Assembly (NCBI RefSeq): GCF_003018255.1
Contig: NZ_CP027440.1
Length of the DNA stretch: 64,000 bases
DNA from: Escherichia coli
Lineage (GTDB): Bacteria > Pseudomonadota > Gammaproteobacteria > Enterobacterales > Enterobacteriaceae
Direction: 5' to 3' (one strand)
Below, piece after piece: positions 4,311 through 63,694 of the stretch (position 1 is the stretch's first letter; every line of letters starts with the position of its first letter). The position numbers were made by a program, and so were the translations under genes. Under the pieces are notes generated by a model. That model did not search any database and had not been told where the DNA came from. It worked only from the letters and a program-made list of their open reading frames with translations.

Positions 4311-4379
4311 ATTGTATTCTCTTTAGTGGGCGTCAAAAAAAACGCCGGATTAACCGGCGTCTGACGACTGACTTAACGC

Positions 4380-6065
4380 TCAGGCTTTATTGTCCACTTT
4401 GCCGCGCGCTTCGTCACGTAATTCTCGTCGCAAAATTTTTCCGACGTTAGATTTCGGTAACTCATCACGAAACTCCACCAGCTTCGGTACTTTGTAGCCC
4501 GTGAGCTGACGGCGGCAAAAAGTCACCAGTGACTCTTCGGTAAGTGATGGATCTTTTTTCACAACGAAGATTTTCACCGCTTCGCCACTGGAGCCAGAAG
4601 GTACGCCAACAGCCGCGACTTCCTGTACGCCAGGATGCTGCATGACGACATCTTCAATCTCGTTGGGATAGACGTTAAAACCGGAAACCAGAATCATGTC
4701 TTTTTTACGATCGACAATACGCAGGAATCCTTCTTCATCCATCACCGCGATGTCGCCAGTGTGTAACCAGCCATTTTTGATGATTTCATCGGTAGCATCC
4801 GGACGCTGCCAGTAACCCAGCATCACCTGCGGTCCTTTGACACAAAGCTCACCTGGTTGACCCGGTGGTACTTCGTTGTCGTCGTCATCCACCAGTTTGG
4901 CTTCCGTCGACGGCACCGGCAAACCGATGCTACCACTATGATAATCAATATCATACGGGTTAACGCTGACCAGCGGCGCACACTCGGTCAGGCCATAACC
5001 TTCCAGCAGATACTGCCCTGTCAGTTTCACCCAACGTTCTGCCACCACTTGCTGAACAGGCATCCCACCGCCTGCGGAAAGGTGCAGACTGGAGAAATCC
5101 AGCTGCTGGAACTCTTTATTGTTCAGCAACGCATTGAATAAGGTGTTAACGCCAGTGATAGCGGTAAACGGATATTTCGCTAACTCTTTTACCAACCCTG
5201 GAATATCGCGCGGGTTAGTGATAAGCAGGTTCTGCCCACCCAGTTCGATAAACAGCAGGCAGTTAATGGTCAGTGCAAAAATGTGATAAAGCGGCAGCGC
5301 CGTCACCACCAGCTCTTTGCCCGGATGCAACAGCGGACCATAGGTCGCGTTAACCTGTTCCAGGTTCGCCAGCATATTGCGGTGAGTCAGCATCGCGCCT
5401 TTCGCCACACCAGTGGTACCGCCGGTGTATTGCAGGAAAGCTAAATCTTCCGGCACCAGTTCGGGTTTGACGTACTGCATCCGGTAGCCGTTGTGCAGGG
5501 CGCTACGAAATGAAATGGCATCTGGCAGATGGTATTTCGGCACCAGACGCTTGATGTATTTAACAACAAAATTGACTACCGTGCCTTTTGCCGTAGATAG
5601 CTGATCGCCCATACGGGTCAGAATTACGTGCTGAACGGCGGTTTTATCAACCACTTTTTCCAGAGTGTGGGCAAAGTTAGACACGATAACAATCGCCGAT
5701 GCGCCGCTATCGTTAAGCTGATGCTCAAGTTCACGCGGGGTATACAACGGGTTAACGTTTACGACAATCATCCCGGCACGCAAAATGCCAAACAGCGCCA
5801 CCGGATATTGCAATAAATTAGGCATCATCAACGCAACGCGATCGCCTTTCTTCAGTCCCAACCCTTGTTGCAAATAAGCGGCAAACGCGCGACTGCGTTC
5901 TTCCAGTTTGCGGAAGGTCATCACCTCCCCCATATTCACAAACGCGGGTTGATCGGCGTAGCGCGCGACCGACTGCTCAAACATATCTACCAGAGATTGA
6001 TAACGGTCAGGGTTGATCTCCGTCGGAACGTCCGCGGGATAACGGTTAAGCCAAACCTTCTTCAA
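4380..6065 (-). CDS. fadD: Long-chain fatty-acid CoA ligase FadD, 561 aa, TTG start
   Basis: ORF 4380..6131 minus; known N-terminus [10 protein letters not shown] begins at the TTG codon at 6063-6065; AMP-binding motif [12 protein letters not shown] present. Confidence 0.93.
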
Positions 6066-10749: not shown

Positions 10750-10777
10750 GTTAAATTTATATCAGCATAAATGGGTC

Positions 10778-10815
10778 AGGACGCTTTTAATCACATATGA
10801 AAAGCGTCCTTTTTC
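10778..10815. terminator. Bidirectional intrinsic terminator between convergent yoaC and yoaH
   Basis: 11-bp perfect stem aggacgctttt / aaaagcgtcct with 11-nt loop followed by ttttct. Confidence 0.7.
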
Positions 10816-14743: not shown

Positions 14744-16342
14744 ATGCAAAAAGCACAACGGATCATTAAAACCTATCGCCGTAATCGAATGATTGTTTGT
14801 ACGATTTGCGCACTCGTTACGCTCGCTTCGACCCTGAGCGTGCGATTTATTTCACAGCGTAACTTAAATCAACAACGGGTAGTACAATTCGCCAATCACG
14901 CTGTAGAGGAATTAGATAAAGTACTGCTTCCCCTACAGGCAGGTAGCGAAGTCTTGCTTCCGCTGATTGGTCTGCCCTGCTCTGTCGCCCATTTGCCATT
15001 ACGTAAACAGGCGGCAAAACTCCAAACTGTGCGATCCATTGGCCTGGTGCAAGACGGCACACTTTATTGCTCCAGCATTTTTGGTTATCGCAATGTGCCC
15101 GTCGTGGACATTCTGGCTGAACTTCCTGCACCGCAACCACTTTTACGCCTGACGATCGACCGTGCCCTGATTAAAGGCAGTCCGGTTTTGATTCAATGGA
15201 CACCTTCAGCGGGCAGTAGCAATGCTGGGGTCATGGAGATGATTAACATCGACTTACTGACGGCAATGCTCCTTGAGCCACAACTGCCGCAAATCAGTAG
15301 CGCCAGCCTGACGGTGGGCAAACGGCATTTGCTCTATGGTAATGGGCTGGTAGATTCCCTTCCGCAACCTGAAGACAATGAAAACTATCAGGTTTCTTCG
15401 CAACGCTTTCCTTTTACCATTAACGTTAATGGTCCGGGGGCTACGGCGCTGGCATGGCACTATCTTCCAACACAATTACCGCTGGCGGTGCTGCTAAGTT
15501 TACTGGTGGGCTATATCGCCTGGCTGGCGACCGCTTACCGAATGAGCTTTTCCCGCGAAATCAATCTGGGCCTGGCGCAACATGAGTTCGAATTGTTCTG
15601 TCAGCCTTTGCTTAATGCGCACAGCCAGCAATGTATTGGTGTAGAGATTTTGCTGCGCTGGAACAATCCGCGTCAGGGCTGGATTTCACCGGATGTGTTT
15701 ATTCCTATCGCGGAAGAACATCATTTAATTGTGCCACTGACCCGCTATGTGATGGCAGAAACCATTCGTCAGCGCCATGTTTTCCCAATGAGTAGTCAGT
15801 TTCATGTTGGCATTAACGTCGCACCCAGTCATTTTCGCCGTGGTGTGCTGATAAAAGATCTCAATCAGTACTGGTTTAGCGCTCACCCGATTCAGCAACT
15901 GATCCTCGAAATCACCGAACGCGATGCCTTACTGGATGTTGATTATCGGATTGCCCGCGAGCTGCATCGTAAAAACGTCAAACTGGCGATTGATGACTTC
16001 GGCACCGGCAACAGTTCGTTTTCCTGGCTTGAAACATTACGTCCTGACGTGCTGAAAATTGATAAGTCATTTACCGCAGCTATAGGTTCTGACGCGGTTA
16101 ACTCGACGGTGACCGATATCATCATCGCGCTGGGGCAAAGACTGAATATTGAACTGGTGGCGGAGGGCGTGGAAACGCAAGAACAGGCGAAGTATTTGCG
16201 CCGTCATGGCGTGCATATTTTGCAAGGGTATTTGTACGCACAGCCGATGCCGCTACGTGATTTTCCCAAATGGCTGGCGGGCAGCCAACCGCCGCCCGCC
16301 CGGCATAATGGACATATCACACCCATTATGCCGTTACGTTAA
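14744..16342 (+). CDS. pdeD: Cyclic-di-GMP phosphodiesterase PdeD (YoaD), CSS-domain plus EAL domain, 532 aa
   Basis: Internal ATG at 14744 of ORF 14714..16342; EAL-domain motifs (EITER, DDFGTG) in C-terminal half. Confidence 0.9.
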   Translation: MQKAQRIIKTYRRNRMIVCTICALVTLASTLSVRFISQRNLNQQRVVQFANHAVEELDKVLLPLQAGSEVLLPLIGLPCSVAHLPLRKQAAKLQTVRSIGLVQDGTLYCSSIFGYRNVPVVDILAELPAPQPLLRLTIDRALIKGSPVLIQWTPSAGSSNAGVMEMINIDLLTAMLLEPQLPQISSASLTVGKRHLLYGNGLVDSLPQPEDNENYQVSSQRFPFTINVNGPGATALAWHYLPTQLPLAVLLSLLVGYIAWLATAYRMSFSREINLGLAQHEFELFCQPLLNAHSQQCIGVEILLRWNNPRQGWISPDVFIPIAEEHHLIVPLTRYVMAETIRQRHVFPMSSQFHVGINVAPSHFRRGVLIKDLNQYWFSAHPIQQLILEITERDALLDVDYRIARELHRKNVKLAIDDFGTGNSSFSWLETLRPDVLKIDKSFTAAIGSDAVNSTVTDIIIALGQRLNIELVAEGVETQEQAKYLRRHGVHILQGYLYAQPMPLRDFPKWLAGSQPPPARHNGHITPIMPLR

Positions 16343-16345
16343 CGC

Positions 16346-17902
16346 TTACTCATCTTCATCGTGCACCGGTTGCTCTTTAACAATGCGAACCAGATCAACA
16401 CGATAATCATTGGCTTCAATGATGGTGATATGCAGTGGCCCTACATCAATCACATCGCCCACACGGGGAATGTGACCATTTGCCGAGATCACGAGGCCCG
16501 CGACCGTCGCGATATCATCGTCATCGGCAAGGTGCTCAACATCAAGCGCCTGCTGCAAGGCATGCAAATCTGTACCGCCTTTTACCAGCCAGCCGTCACC
16601 ATCGGTAATGATTTCCGGCGTTTCGTCTGCGTCCGGGAATTCACCCGCAATGGCTTCCAGCACATCCAGCGGCGTGACCAGACCTTGTACCACACCAAAC
16701 TCGTTGGTCACGATAACAAAGCTCCCGCGAGCACGACGCAGCACGCCCAGCAGGTTGATCGGGTCAAGGGTTTCCGGAACGATAATTGCCGGAGACGCCG
16801 AAGCTATCGCCGCCACATCAACGCCCTCTTCCAGCGCCACCAGCAGTTCTTTAGCACGTACGATACCGATGATTTCATCCAGTTCACCGCGACATACCGG
16901 GAACAGACTGTGCGGTGAGGAGAGCAGCTGCTCGCGGATTTCATCGACCCCGAGATTAGCGTCAACCCAGCTTATTTCACCGCGCGGCGTCATGATCCCG
17001 CGCAGAGAACGCGACGCCAGCGTCAATACGCCGTTAATCATGTAACGTTCTTCTTCGGCAAACGCACCTTCCGGGATCGGCATCGGCATCGGGTTATCGG
17101 CATCGTGCTGAACATTGGCCTGACGTTTCCCGCCCATCAAACGCAGGATGGCATCGGCAGTACGCGCACGCAGCGGCAAAGTCGACTGGTGACGAATAAA
17201 GTTGCGACGCGCAATCTGGTTAAACACTTCGATGATGATCGAGAAGCCAATCGCGGCATACAGGTAACCTTTCGGAATGTGGAAACCGAAACCTTCTGCC
17301 ACCAGACTCAGACCTATCATTAACAGGAAGCTCAGACAGAGCACCACCACCGTTGGATGCTGGTTAACAAATCGCGTCAGCGGTTTCGATGCCAGCAGCA
17401 TAACCGCCATCGCAATCACTACCGCCGCCATCATCACCGGCAGATGGTTAACCATCCCTACTGCCGTAATTACCGCATCCAATGAGAAGACGGCGTCAAG
17501 GATGACAATCTGTGTGACGACCACCCAGAAACTGGCGTAGCCTTTACCGTGGCCGGAATCATGATCGCGGTTTTCCAGCCGTTCATGCAGTTCGGTTGTT
17601 GCTTTGAACAGCAAGAATATCCCCCCGAACAACATAATCAGGTCGCGTCCGGAGAAGGAGAAATCCATGACGGTAAATAGCGGTTTGGTCAGCGTGACCA
17701 TCCATGAAATCAGCGACAGCAGCCCCAGACGCATAATCAGCGCCAGTGATAATCCCAGCAAACGCGCTTTATCGCGTTGTTTTGGCGGCAGTTTGTCAGC
17801 AAGAATGGCGATGAAGACCAGGTTATCGATACCCAGCACAATTTCGAGAACAACAAGCGTGAGTAGCCCCGCCCAAATTGAGGGGTCCATTAAGAATTCC
17901 AT
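16346..17902 (-). CDS. yoaE: TerC-family inner-membrane protein with CBS and CorC-type C-terminal domains (YoaE), 518 aa
   Basis: ORF 16346..17902 minus; N-terminal TM TerC domain then CBS pair. Confidence 0.92.
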
Positions 17903-18364
17903 GACAAGCTCCTGCTTAAGGAATAGCTATTCGACGCCAGAAATAATGCAGGCGTAACGACAAAATGCAAACGAAAGGTGCGGCATAGAGTGCCAGAAAG
18001 ACAGGCGTTAAAAGGCCTGATGCTGAAATGACGTCGGTGACGATCCATACTGCGGGCTACTGCCCTATACTCCATGGTTGTTAAACGGGAGTTAAACATA
18101 TCAGAGACGCCTCTGATTTGGCAAAGATTTACCTTCCTTTGCAAACGAATGTGACAAGGATATTTTACCTTTCGAAATTTCTGCTAATCGAAAGTTAAAT
18201 TACGGATCTTCATCACATAAAATAATTTTTTCGATATCTAAAATAAATCGCGAAACGCAGGGGTTTTTGGTTGTAGCCCTTATCTGAATCGATTCGATTG
18301 TGGACGACGATTCAAAAATACATCTGGCACGTTGAGGTGTTAACGATAATAAAGGAGGTAGCAA

Positions 18365-21593: not shown

Positions 21594-21642
21594 AGCTATG
21601 TTTAGTGTATTTTTAATAATCAGACATAGCTTAGGCTATATT
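21594..21642. promoter_or_regulatory. Candidate MntR operator(s) upstream of mntP
   Basis: Palindromic ACATAGC-ttag-GCTATATT at 21624-21642 and half-site GCTATGTTT at 21595-21603. Confidence 0.45.
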
Positions 21643-21774
21643 ACCCCTTCCCTTATTTGTTATTTATTTTAACGTTTCATTGATATATAAATCTAAATGA
21701 AAATCGTTATCAATAAAGCAATGAAATAATATATTCCAACAGTTGTTTTATATTCTCAAAATATGTTAAGGTTG

Positions 21775-21960
21775 CGCCCTCATTTGGGGAGTAGCCGATT
21801 TCCAGATTCCGGAAATGTACGTGTCAACATACTCGTTGCAAAACGTGGCACGTACGGACTGAACACTTTCAGTCAGGCGAGACCATATGCACATCAATCG
21901 CTATGCCTGCATGAACGCGAAAACCATCGCGGTTTGTCGTTCATGTATGCATGTTTGCTG
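21775..21960 (+). ncRNA. mntP 5' leader carrying yybP-ykoY-class Mn(2+) riboswitch (boundaries approximate)
   Basis: Long non-coding leader upstream of mntP containing the GGGGAGTAGCC motif and paired distal elements that I recognise as the yybP-ykoY fold; only short spurious ORFs here. Confidence 0.6.
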
Positions 21961-22004
21961 GGGGCGATGATGTGTTTTATGGATACCCCGGTCAGGACGT
22001 TGTC

Positions 22005-22571
22005 ATGAATATCACTGCTACTATTCTTCTTGCGTTTGGTATGTCGATGGATGCATTTGCTGCATCAATCGGTAAAGGTGCCACCCTCCATAAACCGAAA
22101 TTTTCTGAAGCGTTGCGAACCGGCCTTATTTTTGGTGCTGTCGAAACCCTGACGCCGCTGATCGGCTGGGGAATGGGCATGTTAGCCAGCCGGTTTGTCC
22201 TTGAATGGAACCACTGGATTGCGTTTGTGCTGCTGATATTCCTCGGCGGGCGAATGATTATTGAGGGTTTTCGTGGCGCAGATGATGAAGATGAAGAGCC
22301 GCGCCGTCGACACGGTTTCTGGCTACTGGTAACCACCGCGATTGCCACCAGCCTGGATGCCATGGCTGTGGGTGTTGGTCTTGCTTTCCTTCAGGTCAAC
22401 ATTATCGCGACCGCATTGGCCATTGGTTGTGCAACCTTGATTATGTCGACATTAGGGATGATGGTTGGTCGCTTTATCGGCTCAATTATTGGGAAAAAAG
22501 CGGAAATTCTCGGCGGGCTGGTGCTGATCGGCATCGGCGTCCAGATCCTCTGGACGCACTTCCACGGTTAA
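22005..22571 (+). CDS. mntP: Mn(2+) efflux pump MntP (YebN), 188 aa
   Basis: Internal ATG at 22005 of ORF 21951..22571; membrane protein. Confidence 0.92.
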
Positions 22572-23377: not shown

Positions 23378-23468
23378 GACAACTCCGGCAGGATACTAAA
23401 GGCCGCAAGTGTAACGCGAATCACGCGGCGGGCAAATATCCGAACGACTGGAGCGAAGATAAAGCAAA

Positions 23469-23497
23469 GTAAAAAGCCTCGCATTCGACGAGGCTTT
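23469..23497 (-). terminator. cspC intrinsic terminator
   Basis: Minus-strand RNA forms gcctcg / cgaggc stem followed by uuuuu. Confidence 0.7.
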
Positions 23498-23542
23498 ATA
23501 GCGAGATTGAAGCGTATTCACACTTCAGATCAGTGGATTCGA

Positions 23543-23752
23543 TCAGATAGCTGTTACGTTAACAGCTGCCGGACCTTTCTGACCGTCCTGAATTTCGAAC
23601 TCAACGTTCTGACCTTCAGCCAGAGTTTTGAAACCATTACCCTGGATAGCAGAGAAGTGTACGAACACGTCTTTGCTGCCATCAGCCGGAGTAATGAAGC
23701 CAAAACCTTTAGACTCGTTGAACCACTTAACCTGACCTTTAATCTTTGCCAT
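23543..23752 (-). CDS. cspC: Cold-shock-domain protein CspC, 69 aa
   Basis: ORF 23543..23752 minus; [20 protein letters not shown] with RNP motifs. Confidence 0.96.
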
Positions 23753-23764
23753 TTGAAAAATTCC

Positions 23765-23908
23765 TTAGATTGTTTTCTTCGCCCGCAGGCATAACATAGA
23801 TAAAACTGACACATTACTGCATGAGGCACCAATATAAGGCTCGGCAGAGAAGCGGTATTCAACGTCAACGTGTTTACTCAGGACTTCTTTACTGAAAATG
23901 CCACACAT
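23765..23908 (-). CDS. yobF: Small stress-induced protein YobF, 47 aa (co-transcribed with cspC)
   Basis: Manual minus-strand translation [47 protein letters not shown]; ends 12 nt before cspC start; below ORF-track cut-off. Confidence 0.85.
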
Positions 23909-24532
23909 AAACAGAACTGTACCTCGTTTAACCCGAAATCTGTTATCACATACAACGTTAATTATGGCAAGCCATTTTTAAACATGTCTCGATCAGACGC
24001 ACAAATCTCGATACGTCTTCCACTTTTTTTGCACACTTATGCAACGGAATACGCGCCGATATATCATTGTGCTTAACCTTGCCAGTTCAGGCAGATACTT
24101 AAACTGACGTATTTTCTAACATAGTTCAATAAGTTCAGTTGTTCCAGGCCAGTGGGAGAAGTTATTACATAGTGCGTGCAATATCACATTTTCTGCTATG
24201 CAATGAATAAAAAGTTATATCACTTTTTCTCATAAAACAGTCAGTTAACGGCTATCGATCACCCCAAAGAGAAGTCAATCGCCAAAGGTATTGTAAATTT
24301 AAAATAAGAAAAATTGATGAATGCGCAAAAAAATCAAGAGAGAAACGTTTCGCTAATAAATAATACCACGCTTAATCACAAATCCGATGTAAACATCCTA
24401 ATAAATTAATGGGCTAAATATCTTTTTCTGATATCCCGTTACGCAAATAAATAATATGATAATTATTTGAAGTCAGACCAGAGTTTTAATTTGAAGCAGT
24501 TGCACCATGACAGTGCGTATAATCAGGATGAA

Positions 24533-38437: not shown

Positions 38438-38629
38438 ATGTTCGCGCTGGTACTTTTTGTTTGCTACCTGGATGGCGGTTGTGAAGATATTGTTGTGGAT
38501 GTCTACAACACGGAACAGCAGTGTCTTTATTCTATGAGCGATCAACGGATCCGCCATGGCGGTTGTTTTCCAATCGAGGATTTTATTGATGGTTTCTGGC
38601 GACCAGCACAGGAGTACGGTGATTTTTAA
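38438..38629 (+). CDS. yebW: Uncharacterized protein YebW, 63 aa
   Basis: Internal ATG at 38438 of ORF 38354..38629. Confidence 0.8.
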   Translation: MFALVLFVCYLDGGCEDIVVDVYNTEQQCLYSMSDQRIRHGGCFPIEDFIDGFWRPAQEYGDF

Positions 38630-39286
38630 TTATTGCAATTGCACAAGAGTCAGTTCGCCCCCAAAGACAGCACCGGTATCAATATAATGCAGGTTGCCAA
38701 TATCCACGCGATGTCGCAACGGTGTATGACCAAACCAGAAATGATCAGCACCTTTAATTCCCTGCCCTTTTGGGCGTTCACCTAATCGCGAGCGGCTCCA
38801 CAAGACCTGATGCAAATCAACGTCCTTTTGCCATTCATAAACATCATCCGGATAATCGGCATGGGCAATAACATGTTTGCCGGTGCGACTGTGTACTTCA
38901 AGAATAAAGGGCAAATGCTGACATTTTTCCAGCGCCGTTTTCGCTTGTTTCTGTTGATTATCTGCCAGCGCAATAAACCAGTCGCCGCCATTCATGAACC
39001 ACAAAGACATCTGCTGGGATGCCAGCGCATCCATCGCCATCTGTTCATGATTGCCTCTTACCGCACGAACCCAATGTTGTTCCAGTAACTGCAGGCAACG
39101 TAAACTTTGCGGCCCACGATCGATAACGTCTCCCACTGAGATAAGTAAATCTCGCCACGGATCAAAACGACAATGCCATAATTTGCGGCGCAACTGCTCA
39201 AGACAACCGTGTATATCGCCTGAAAGCCAGATATGTCGCCATTGATGACCCGCAATTCTCTGATAAACGGGCGCAGGCTGTTTCAT
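38630..39286 (-). CDS. pphA: Ser/Thr protein phosphatase 1 (PphA/PrpA), 218 aa
   Basis: ORF 38630..39289 minus; calcineurin-like phosphoesterase motifs GDIHG, GDVIDRG, GNHE. Confidence 0.92.
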   Translation of the reverse strand: MKQPAPVYQRIAGHQWRHIWLSGDIHGCLEQLRRKLWHCRFDPWRDLLISVGDVIDRGPQSLRCLQLLEQHWVRAVRGNHEQMAMDALASQQMSLWFMNGGDWFIALADNQQKQAKTALEKCQHLPFILEVHSRTGKHVIAHADYPDDVYEWQKDVDLHQVLWSRSRLGERPKGQGIKGADHFWFGHTPLRHRVDIGNLHYIDTGAVFGGELTLVQLQ

Positions 39287-39322: not shown

Positions 39323-39571
39323 TAACAAGAATGTTAAAAAACGCTGGACGCAGACAGTAGAGTGTGTGTTATGGTTGACTATAAAGTCAGCGAAGGGAAT
39401 GCTTCTGGCTTTTAACAGATAAAAAGAGACCGAACACGATTCCTGTATTCGGTCCAGGGAAATGGCTCTTGGGAGAGAGCCGTGCGCTAAAAGTTGGCAT
39501 TAATGCAGGCTTAGTTGCCTTGCTCTTTAAGAATAGATGACGACGCCAGGTTTTCCAGTTTGCGTGCAAAA
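39323..39571 (+). ncRNA. ryeA: RyeA (SraC) sRNA, antisense partner of SdsR (boundaries approximate)
   Basis: Non-coding pphA-yebY spacer; plus-strand transcript position inferred from recall of the ryeA/ryeB overlapping arrangement. Confidence 0.5.
39421..39523 (-). ncRNA. sdsR: SdsR (RyeB) sigma-S-dependent sRNA
   Basis: Minus strand reads GCAAGGCAACTAAGCCTGCATTAATGCCAACTTTTAGCGCACGGCTCTCTCCCAAGAGCCATTTCCCTGGACCGAATACAGGAATCGTGTTCGGTCTCTTTTT, ending in a terminator hairpin plus U-tract. Confidence 0.8.
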
Positions 39572-42435: not shown

Positions 42436-45182
<2,747 letters not shown>

Positions 45183-62568: not shown

Positions 62569-63171
62569 GTGAATATTAATTATCCTGCTGAATATGAAAT
62601 TGGTGATATCGTCTTTACATGTATAGGTGCTACCTTATTTGGTCAAATATCAGCTGCATCAAATTGCTGGAGTAATCACGTCGGGATCATTATCGGTCAT
62701 AACGGTGAAGACTTCCTGGTTGCAGAAAGCCGGGTTCCCCTTTCAACCATCACCACGCTATCTCGTTTTATTAAACGTTCGTCTAATCAACGCTATGCTA
62801 TAAAGCGATTAGACGCTGGGCTGACAGAACAACAAAAACAACGAATTGTTGAACAGGTTCCCTCCCGGCTACGCAAACTTTACCACACCGGTTTTAAATA
62901 CGAATCTTCGCGCCAGTTCTGTTCAAAATTTGTTTTTGATATTTATAAAGAAGCGCTATGTATTCCGGTGGGTGAAATAGAGACGTTTGGAGAATTGTTA
63001 AATAGCAATCCGAATGCAAAACTCACTTTCTGGAAATTCTGGTTCTTAGGTTCTATTCCGTGGGAGCGTAAAACCGTCACGCCAGCCAGTTTGTGGCATC
63101 ATCCGGGTTTGGTGTTGATTCATGCGGAGGGAGTGGAAACGCCTCAGCCGGAACTGACCGAGGCGGTATAA
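62569..63171 (+). CDS. yebB: Uncharacterized protein YebB (permuted papain-like / YiiX-type fold suspected), 200 aa
   Basis: ORF 62569..63171; preceded by very AT-rich spacer. Confidence 0.85.
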
Positions 63172-63172
63172 C

Positions 63173-63694
63173 TTAACGCAGTCGCCCTCTCGCCAGGTTC
63201 AGCCGCGATTCGCTCATCTGCATCGCATTCTGACTGACGTGACAATGGGTAATCGCGATAGCTAATGCATCGGCAGCATCCGCCTGTGGATTAGCGGGCA
63301 GTTTCAGCAAGGTGCGGACCATATGCTGCACCTGGCTTTTTTCGGCACTACCAATACCTACCACCGTTTGCTTTACCTGACGTGCCGCATATTCAAATAC
63401 CGGCAATTCCTGATTCACCGCTGCCACAATCGCCACGCCGCGCGCCTGACCCAGTTTCAGGGCTGAGTCAGCGTTCTTCGCCATAAAGACTTGTTCAATG
63501 GCGAAATAATCAGGCTGGAACTGGGTGATGATTTCCGTCACGCCCGCATAGATGAGCTTCAGACGAGACGGTAAATCATCCACTTTGGTGCGTATGCATC
63601 CGCTACCCAGGTAGGACAGTTGCCTGCCTACCTGGCGGATGACGCCATAGCCGGTCACGCGCGAACCCGGGTCAATGCCGAGAATAATAGCCAT
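63173..63694 (-). CDS. ruvC: Holliday-junction resolvase RuvC, 173 aa
   Basis: Second ATG of ORF 63173..63697 ([18 protein letters not shown]). Confidence 0.94.

Follow-up and report, generated by a model that had tools for sequence, protein, structure and literature searches.

The mRNA of Escherichia coli yoaE runs past its own stop codon and ends inside the convergent gene pdeD, just beyond two hairpins encoded by the last codons of pdeD. We analyzed the two genes within a window, a continuous stretch of 64 kb whose numbering is used here. From the open reading frame calls and the annotation, pdeD (yoaD; 14744-16342, + strand) encodes a protein of 532 residues with a CSS-motif and an EAL domain, the latter ending at residue 501 and followed by a 31-residue tail. 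On the opposite strand, yoaE (16346-17902, - strand) encodes 518 residues with TerC, CBS and CorC_HlyC domains; the protein is named MgpA in Salmonella. The letters at 16340-16348 read TAA CGC TTA, and consist of the pdeD stop (16340-16342, +), a 3-nt CGC spacer separating both stops (16343-16345) and the yoaE stop (16346-16348, TAA on the - strand). The original prediction of convergent stops only 3 nt apart is thus borne out by the sequence and by the RefSeq annotation, which places the same boundaries in K-12 and in E. coli genomes matching this region at 100% identity. It had also been proposed that the arrangement leaves no room for separate terminators. None fits between the stops, but terminator-type structures do exist, embedded in the last codons of the partner gene.

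The primary 3' terminus of yoaE has been mapped in K-12 to 1899949-1899958 on the minus strand (PMC10687069, Supplementary Data 2-4), which corresponds to 16266-16275 (-) when the K-12 coordinates are mapped onto the window. This terminus lies about 80 nt past the yoaE stop, inside pdeD, and defines a 3' UTR of 81 nt that is antisense and fully complementary to the 3' end of pdeD. These data show that transcription of yoaE continues through its own stop and the 3-nt spacer and proceeds antisense to the pdeD tail. The mapped 3' end at this junction is on the yoaE side only. No end at the junction appears in the Term-seq tables of Adams et al. (PMC7815308) or in the TERMITe tables, probably due to low expression.

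The two strong hairpins are encoded at the very end of pdeD, by about 20 of its last 22 codons (~511-530). Hairpin A (16301-16333, -; pdeD codons ~519-530) is built on the perfect 11-bp inverted repeat CGGCATAATGG/CCATTATGCCG, and its stem reaches 15 bp in the yoaE-sense RNA. Hairpin B (16276-16300, -; pdeD codons ~511-519) has the form GGCGGGCGGC-GGUUG-GCUGCCCGCC, whose GC-rich stem spans 10 bp in the yoaE-sense RNA. Its 45-nt window folds with -26 kcal/mol, placing it in the top 0.03% of the 64-kb window and in the same class of strength as the intergenic terminators found there; a published value for the hairpin at the yoaE terminus is -29.5 kcal/mol (PMC10687069). The 3' end of the stable yoaE mRNA falls 1-10 nt beyond hairpin B. 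A repeated REP-like element was considered for these hairpins and ruled out, as each of 5,424 E. coli genomes contains the 1.1-kb region just once. Rfam returned no credible match at 16100-16600, and none at the gathering score.

Downstream of the mapped end, the yoaE-sense RNA carries a C-rich, G-poor stretch (16112-16241, -; +105 to +234 from the yoaE stop). Its C/G ratios are 1.5-2.0, and three of its four sub-windows approach or exceed the 95th percentile for the 64-kb window. We regard this as a candidate rut (Rho loading) region. A bicyclomycin-sensitive Rho termination region antisense to pdeD has been reported with its peak at 16094 (-) (K-12 1899777 (-), Rho score 5.5, p = 1.2e-6; PMC7815308, Supplementary file 2), at +252 nt from the yoaE stop, a distance that is imprecise as the regions were called with 800-nt windows. 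Untreated cells gave 51 reads upstream and 9 downstream of it, and bicyclomycin-treated cells 103 and 100 (PMC7815308). Thus, two hallmarks of a Rho-dependent terminator, some 80 nt of C-rich and G-poor untranslated RNA ahead of the termination zone and readthrough on Rho inhibition, are found at yoaE. The U-rich tract of an intrinsic terminator, about five or more U within 8 nt after the stem, is lacking at hairpin B, which is followed by AGCCAUUUGGG with just three U. Since readthrough increases on Rho inhibition and there is no U tract, Rho-dependent termination with trimming is the likeliest explanation. RNA polymerase on yoaE would mostly be stopped by Rho farther downstream, in the C-rich stretch and the region around +252, and 3'-to-5' exonucleases would then shorten the RNA as far as the hairpin. 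We lean towards this full account, in which a hairpin defines the yoaE end in pdeD, Rho releases the transcript downstream and exonucleases trim it, and hold it to be somewhat probable.

It is possible, if rather doubtful, that hairpin B is instead a weak Rho-independent terminator of yoaE, such that 16266-16275 is the true release site and Rho mops up the readthrough. The GC-rich stem-loop of an intrinsic terminator is present, with the 10-bp stem directly upstream of the 3' end, and canonical hairpins with a U tract occupy the equivalent position in three related genera. In Klebsiella and Raoultella, a GC hairpin with a yoaE-sense U tract lies at the same place in a gap of 33-57 nt between the genes, and in Franconibacter such a terminator is embedded in the pdeD tail itself. 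The E. coli sequence after the stem fits this poorly, however: a consensus promoter and terminator scan made no call at hairpin B and found nothing meaningful elsewhere at the junction, and the 10 nt after the stem contain a mean of 1.7 T over 62 species. Moreover, coverage under bicyclomycin is as high downstream as upstream, so the hairpin by itself probably stops little.

For pdeD, a Rho termination region has been reported at the very start of the gene (14760, +; K-12 1898443, Rho score 9.6; PMC7815308), and little transcription enters pdeD in LB. Transcripts of pdeD are presumably scarce in LB because readthrough from sdaA is stopped by Rho at the pdeD 5' end. Those that reach the other end are predicted to enter the antisense of yoaE and to be ended there by Rho; directly past the pdeD stop, antisense to the acidic C-terminus of YoaE, lies a second C-rich, G-poor stretch (16343-16420, +; C/G 1.83) that may serve as the Rho entry site. 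Each gene would then have its 3'-end signals within the coding sequence of its partner. The hairpins fold on both strands, with -38.6 kcal/mol in the pdeD sense and -44.3 kcal/mol in the yoaE sense, both stabler than recoded controls. This would suit an overlapping bidirectional terminator, at which pausing at the hairpin and head-on plus trailing polymerase collisions release the polymerase in both directions, a class described as U-tract-free and Rho-independent (bioRxiv 10.1101/2022.10.23.513370). We consider it very unlikely here, given that a 3' end is mapped in one direction only, that readthrough at yoaE is Rho-sensitive, and that collision efficiency depends on polymerase traffic, which is scant on the pdeD side in LB.

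The convergent arrangement of pdeD and yoaE is found in 77 of 80 Enterobacteriaceae species, with gaps mostly of 0-13 nt; a wide gap occurs only in the group of Klebsiella, Raoultella and Kluyvera. In 62 of the 75 species where the PMP motif of PdeD, just beyond the end of the EAL domain, could be located, it lies 85-100 nt from the yoaE stop. Of 62 distinct Enterobacteriaceae sequences, 59 retain the two hairpins, although with differing stem sequences; for example, E. coli has GGCGGGCGGC/GCUGCCCGCC, Atlantibacter the GGCAGGUGGCG/UGCCACCUGCC type and Buttiauxella GAGGGGGAG/UUCCCCCUC. Conservation of structure was judged from per-sequence folds and from a synonymous-recoding test, in which the pdeD tail was stabler than its recodings in 76% of 46 species, these being non-independent (mean z -2.45), and the neighboring 30 codons gave z +0.69. 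The stems are out of register from one genus to the next, so RNAalifold on a MAFFT alignment yielded hardly any column-wise consensus for them. The peptide of the tail, WLAGSxPPPARHNGHIxPxMPLR, is itself conserved from Escherichia to Enterobacter. Comparative sequence data thus suggest that the tight spacing is ancient and Enterobacteriaceae-wide, and that the pdeD tail is under a double constraint, from the peptide and from the hairpins. A recent origin of the tail, as an E. coli read-through of an old intergenic terminator, is ruled out because tail and tight junction span Escherichia to Cedecea and Buttiauxella. The remaining explanation, that the hairpins are chance or a by-product of a functional PdeD C-terminal peptide, with no RNA role and a spacing due to compaction, could draw on the conserved peptide and on the recoded tails, which, being rich in Pro, Gly and Ala codons, still fold with about -34 kcal/mol; it is already disfavored and the least probable of all, as natural tails exceed their synonymous recodings in folding stability by about 2.5 SD and neighboring codons do not, the stems stay paired in spite of differing sequence between genera, the mapped end of yoaE lies directly at hairpin B, and Klebsiella PdeD wholly lacks the tail peptide and has an intergenic terminator instead.

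The excludon concept reportedly goes back to Sesto et al. in 2013. As in convergent excludons, pdeD and yoaE are opposite-strand neighbors with facing 3' ends, overlapping since one terminator lies in the other gene; here, literature data mapped onto the window place the extension of the yoaE transcription unit in pdeD. The ExcludonFinder study (NAR 2025; PMC12288877) gives 165 convergent excludons in E. coli MG1655, with terminators predicted inside the neighbor in 146 of them, and names pdeD-yoaE, yebW-pphA and exoX-ptrB among those with overlapping transcription; mntP-rlmA and yebB-ruvC are not among the entries of its table covered here. Part of the concept is also that the two genes are expressed in a mutually exclusive way and that RNase III cuts the duplex, both of which would be putative for pdeD-yoaE. 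Rho-dependent, hairpin-processed 3' ends (Dar and Sorek 2018, PMC6061677; Adams et al. 2021, PMC7815308) share with yoaE a stem-loop without a U tract, a bicyclomycin-sensitive region downstream of the stable end and a C-rich, G-poor stretch between the two; the yoaE hairpins differ in lying in opposite-strand coding sequence, and trimming here is putative. Overlapping bidirectional terminators (Ju et al. 2019; bioRxiv 10.1101/2022.10.23.513370) likewise have a hairpin in the shared convergent region and no canonical U tract, but are described as Rho-independent with paired ends on both strands, in contrast to the yoaE-side end and Rho-sensitive readthrough seen here.

As a compact convergent junction in the core genome of E. 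coli, this one is ordinary, and its overlapping transcripts have already been published. Tight convergent stops make up about a third of E. coli convergent pairs and have been mapped and catalogued, with pdeD-yoaE named, so the junction counts for little as a discovery. The present analysis makes a modest addition: the tail hairpins, their family-wide conservation, the recoding signal and the Klebsiella/Raoultella alternative. The pdeD tail would offer a clean family-wide case of a coding sequence shaped by the ending of a neighbor's mRNA. The yoaE mRNA is likely to change when the 3' end of pdeD is deleted or synonymously recoded, and knock-outs at such junctions can act in a polar-like manner on the convergent neighbor. 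A bolder reading, which we think unlikely, is that the last ~22 codons of pdeD are dual-function across Enterobacteriaceae, serving as peptide and as yoaE 3' structure, and that the obligatory 80-nt sense/antisense overlap could couple both genes. If true, inducing the cation-stress exporter YoaE/MgpA would lower the c-di-GMP phosphodiesterase PdeD, or the reverse, and an excludon-type switch would join magnesium/envelope stress to biofilm control.

Among the 12 convergent CDS pairs of the 64-kb window, five are tight, with stops at most 10 nt apart, and seven have gaps of 45-149 nt. In four other 50-kb regions of K-12, 10 of 30 pairs are tight (Fisher p = 0.73), giving 15 of 42 convergent pairs in 264 kb of annotated E. 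coli sequence (36%, 95% CI 22-52%). The tight arrangement is therefore not above the E. coli norm in the window. The four further tight junctions named earlier are all exact. The stops of mntP and rlmA share a 4-nt TTAA at 22568-22571 (sequence and annotation), and rlmA has a 3' hairpin (22537-22557, -) and a published 3' end (22528-22531, -) within the mntP CDS, 37-40 nt inside that gene (PMC7815308; PMC10687069). The exoX and ptrB stops share a TTAA at 43095-43098, again from sequence and annotation; a hairpin lies on the exoX-sense strand within ptrB (43105-43131), and a Rho-sensitive readthrough region antisense to ptrB has been reported at +471 nt from the exoX stop (PMC7815308). yebW ends at 38629 and pphA starts at 38630, their stops abutting as TAA and TTA (38627-38632). 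Between yebB, ending at 63171, and ruvC, beginning at 63173, there is a 1-nt gap; the ruvC 3' hairpin (63140-63165, -) and published 3' end (63132-63135, -) lie within yebB, the latter 38-41 nt inside it (PMC7815308; PMC10687069). The published ends of yoaE, rlmA and ruvC, together with the excludon listing, support the expectation that transcripts at these junctions overlap or end inside the partner, and no gene with published mapping has its 3' end before the partner's stop. In the recoding test on the tails of the tight pairs, the signal was significant for pdeD, mntP, rlmA and exoX, not significant for ptrB, yebB and ruvC, and absent for yebW/pphA. The TTAA junctions mntP/rlmA and exoX/ptrB belong to the class of 4-nt stop-stop overlaps, of the TTAA or CTAG type, whereas the pdeD and yoaE reading frames do not overlap and have a 3-nt gap instead. 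Overlaps of 4 nt are also found in K-12 at fepE/fepC, tatD/rfaH, zapC/ycbX and yccX/tusE.

The window corresponds to the E. coli chromosome segment from yeaV to ruvC and shows 98-99% identity to K-12, with 100% identity to several other strains at the pdeD/yoaE junction. RefSeq annotates the convergent genes as pdeD (b1815) and yoaE (b1816) in identical strains as well as in K-12 MG1655, and places them 3 nt apart in each. Inspection of the sequence confirmed the original prediction that their stop codons lie 3 nt apart: positions 16340-16348 read TAA CGC TTA, with the plus-strand ORF ending at 16342 and the minus-strand stop codon at 16346-16348. The four further tight convergent junctions were, in sequence and annotation, exactly as described: mntP/rlmA and exoX/ptrB each share a TTAA (22568-22571 and 43095-43098, respectively), yebW ends at 38629 and pphA starts at 38630, and yebB ends at 63171 with ruvC starting at 63173. 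The window is free of the IS elements found in its closest relatives (~28900, ~45240 and ~55540); strain JNE23-011 has IS200C between htpX and prc, and in strain ST2747 ISEc46/TnpB follows ptrB and IS200C follows pykA.

This spacing is not unusual. The window contains 12 convergent CDS pairs, five with gaps of ≤3 nt and seven with gaps of 45-149 nt. Defining a tight pair by a gap of ≤10 nt, we found 10 among 30 pairs in four additional 50-kb regions of the K-12 annotation, a share that did not differ from that of the window (Fisher p=0.73). Pooled, 15 of 42 pairs (36%), about one third, were tight. The gaps appear bimodal, with 15 pairs at ≤9 nt (overlaps included), 27 at ≥31 nt and none of the 42 between 10 and 30 nt. 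Unlike the tight junctions, the convergent pair yoaC/yoaH (119-nt gap) has a textbook bidirectional terminator at 10774-10815, with published 3' ends on both strands (K-12 1894457, minus, and 1894498, plus) either side of one hairpin.

The EAL domain of PdeD ends at residue 501 of 532, and codons ~511-530 encode two adjacent hairpins in yoaE-sense (minus-strand) RNA. Hairpin A (16301-16333) consists of a perfect 11-bp inverted repeat, which lengthens to 15 bp when read as yoaE-sense RNA, and hairpin B (16276-16300) has a 10-bp GC-rich stem. With a folding energy of -26 kcal/mol, the 45 nt spanning hairpin B rank among the strongest 0.03% of 45-nt windows across the 64 kb; equally strong folds include the terminator-bearing yeaX/rnd, letB/rsmF and pykA/lpxM intergenic regions. 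E. coli genomes carry a single copy of the junction region, and Rfam returned no family there. In pdeD-sense RNA, only 6 nt separate the end of hairpin A from the stop codon (16333-16342, plus); speculatively, trimming of pdeD mRNA to this hairpin could remove the stop codon and leave a non-stop mRNA.

A TRS study (PMC10687069) places the primary yoaE 3' terminus at K-12 1899949-1899958 (minus), giving an 81-nt 3' UTR, and the structure that it folds ahead of this terminus is precisely hairpin B. In the window this terminus maps to 16266-16275, 1-10 nt past the stem and ~77 nt upstream of the pdeD stop. In the tables of the same study, the rlmA and ruvC ends fall at 22528-22531 and 63132-63135, respectively, and independent mapping by Adams et al. 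(PMC7815308) gives 22531 and 63135, both classed as 'primary, antisense', a class with 99 members genome-wide. Each lies behind a hairpin within the partner's last codons. ExcludonFinder (PMC12288877) lists pdeD-yoaE, yebW-pphA and exoX-ptrB among 165 convergent excludons (opposite-strand neighbours with overlapping transcription units), each detected in half or more of 58 MG1655 RNA-seq sets, and gives terminators predicted inside the neighbour for 146 of the 165. Since published transcript ends and the excludon catalogue agree, as do Rho regions antisense to the partner, the proposal that these transcripts overlap or end inside the partner gene is supported. At pdeD/yoaE this overlap is already published, the pair being named in the catalogue.

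How the yoaE end arises is best read as Rho-dependent termination inside antisense pdeD, after which exonucleases would trim the RNA back to the hairpin, a pattern that Dar and Sorek described and that Adams et al. (PMC7815308) also noted. In the bicyclomycin experiment of the latter study, a Rho-dependent termination region antisense to pdeD lies +252 nt from the yoaE stop (score 5.5), with upstream/downstream reads of 51/9 untreated and 103/100 with bicyclomycin; thus, downstream coverage equals upstream coverage when Rho is inhibited. Just upstream of this region, at +105 to +234, the yoaE-sense RNA is C-rich and G-poor (C/G 1.5-2.0), with three of four sub-windows near or above the 95th percentile of the window. 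Another Rho region, antisense to ptrB, lies +471 nt from the exoX stop (PMC7815308). Direct, weak intrinsic termination at hairpin B is a less likely alternative: the mapped terminus directly follows this strong stem, but the stem is followed by AGCCAUUUGGG, containing 3 U, the consensus terminator scan made no call there, and the 10 nt after the stem contain on average 1.7 T across 62 species.

For pdeD itself, the RNA directly 3' of the stop is C-rich (C/G 1.83), from which Rho-dependent termination of pdeD transcripts inside antisense yoaE is predicted. Little transcription enters pdeD in LB. The published intrinsic-terminator 3' end of sdaA lies at K-12 1898335 (window 14652, plus), and a Rho region of score 9.6 (PMC7815308) sits at the very start of pdeD, 16 nt into the gene (14760, plus); pdeD therefore appears to be mostly insulated, in LB, from transcription arriving from upstream.

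Scanning with YoaE yielded 80 Enterobacteriaceae species, 77 with pdeD convergent to yoaE. As a rule, 0-13 nt separate the two genes (2-3 nt in Escherichia, 6 nt in most Citrobacter and Enterobacter), with overlaps of -4 or -22 nt in some species and gaps of 29-91 nt in S. enterica arizonae, Klebsiella, most Raoultella and Kluyvera; two Raoultella species have 13 nt. PdeD has a conserved 'PMP' motif just beyond its EAL domain; the motif could be located in 75 species, and in 62 of them it lies 85-100 nt from the yoaE stop. Wide-gap Klebsiella and Raoultella carry a canonical GC hairpin and U tract in the gap on the yoaE-sense strand, and their PdeD tails are unrelated (ES repeats in K. pneumoniae, AEKRREMLL in K. 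spallanzanii). In Klebsiella-type genomes, a canonical intergenic terminator is the alternative solution. The K. pneumoniae tail, unrelated to that of E. coli, consists of a simple (GAGAGT)n repeat that encodes ESESES (L044, ~2524-2584) and adjoins a canonical yoaE terminator. Franconibacter has a canonical terminator within the pdeD tail. The two-hairpin architecture occurs in 59 of 62 distinct sequences of the remaining genera, with stem sequences varying by genus.

We compared the fold stability of real tails with that of synonymously recoded versions. Of 46 species, 76% had a real pdeD tail that was the more stable (mean z -2.45), although phylogenetic relatedness means that such cross-species counts are not independent; the 30 codons immediately preceding the tail showed no excess stability (z +0.69). 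The outcome supports selection acting on the fold. RNAalifold did not capture the hairpins across genera because the register shifts between them. Within the window, the test was significant for the pdeD, mntP, rlmA and exoX tails and not for those of yebW, pphA, ptrB, yebB and ruvC. What is new here is limited to showing that the C-terminal codons of pdeD also serve as a conserved yoaE 3'-end structure, a tidy example of a known principle rather than a new kind of system.

A small ORF, yoaL (52 aa, 17890-18048, minus), lies just upstream of yoaE, overlaps its start by 13 nt and may act as its leader or upstream ORF. In Salmonella, yoaE is called mgpA and is linked to Mg2+ stress. A yybP-ykoY manganese riboswitch is reported for E. 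coli mntP, although upstream of mntP in the window (~21600-22005, plus) Rfam found none at gathering score. A published 3' terminus lies within the mntP 5' UTR (K-12 1905667-1905688), and the annotation of strain ST2747 marks mntP as frameshifted. The overlapping sRNA pair SdsR(RyeB)/RyeA(SraC) (39417-39561) adjoins pphA, and sroD matches at 4336-4421. A cspA-type thermoregulator match (23468-23928) spans cspC, the K-12 name of a gene labelled cspE by PGAP in related strains.
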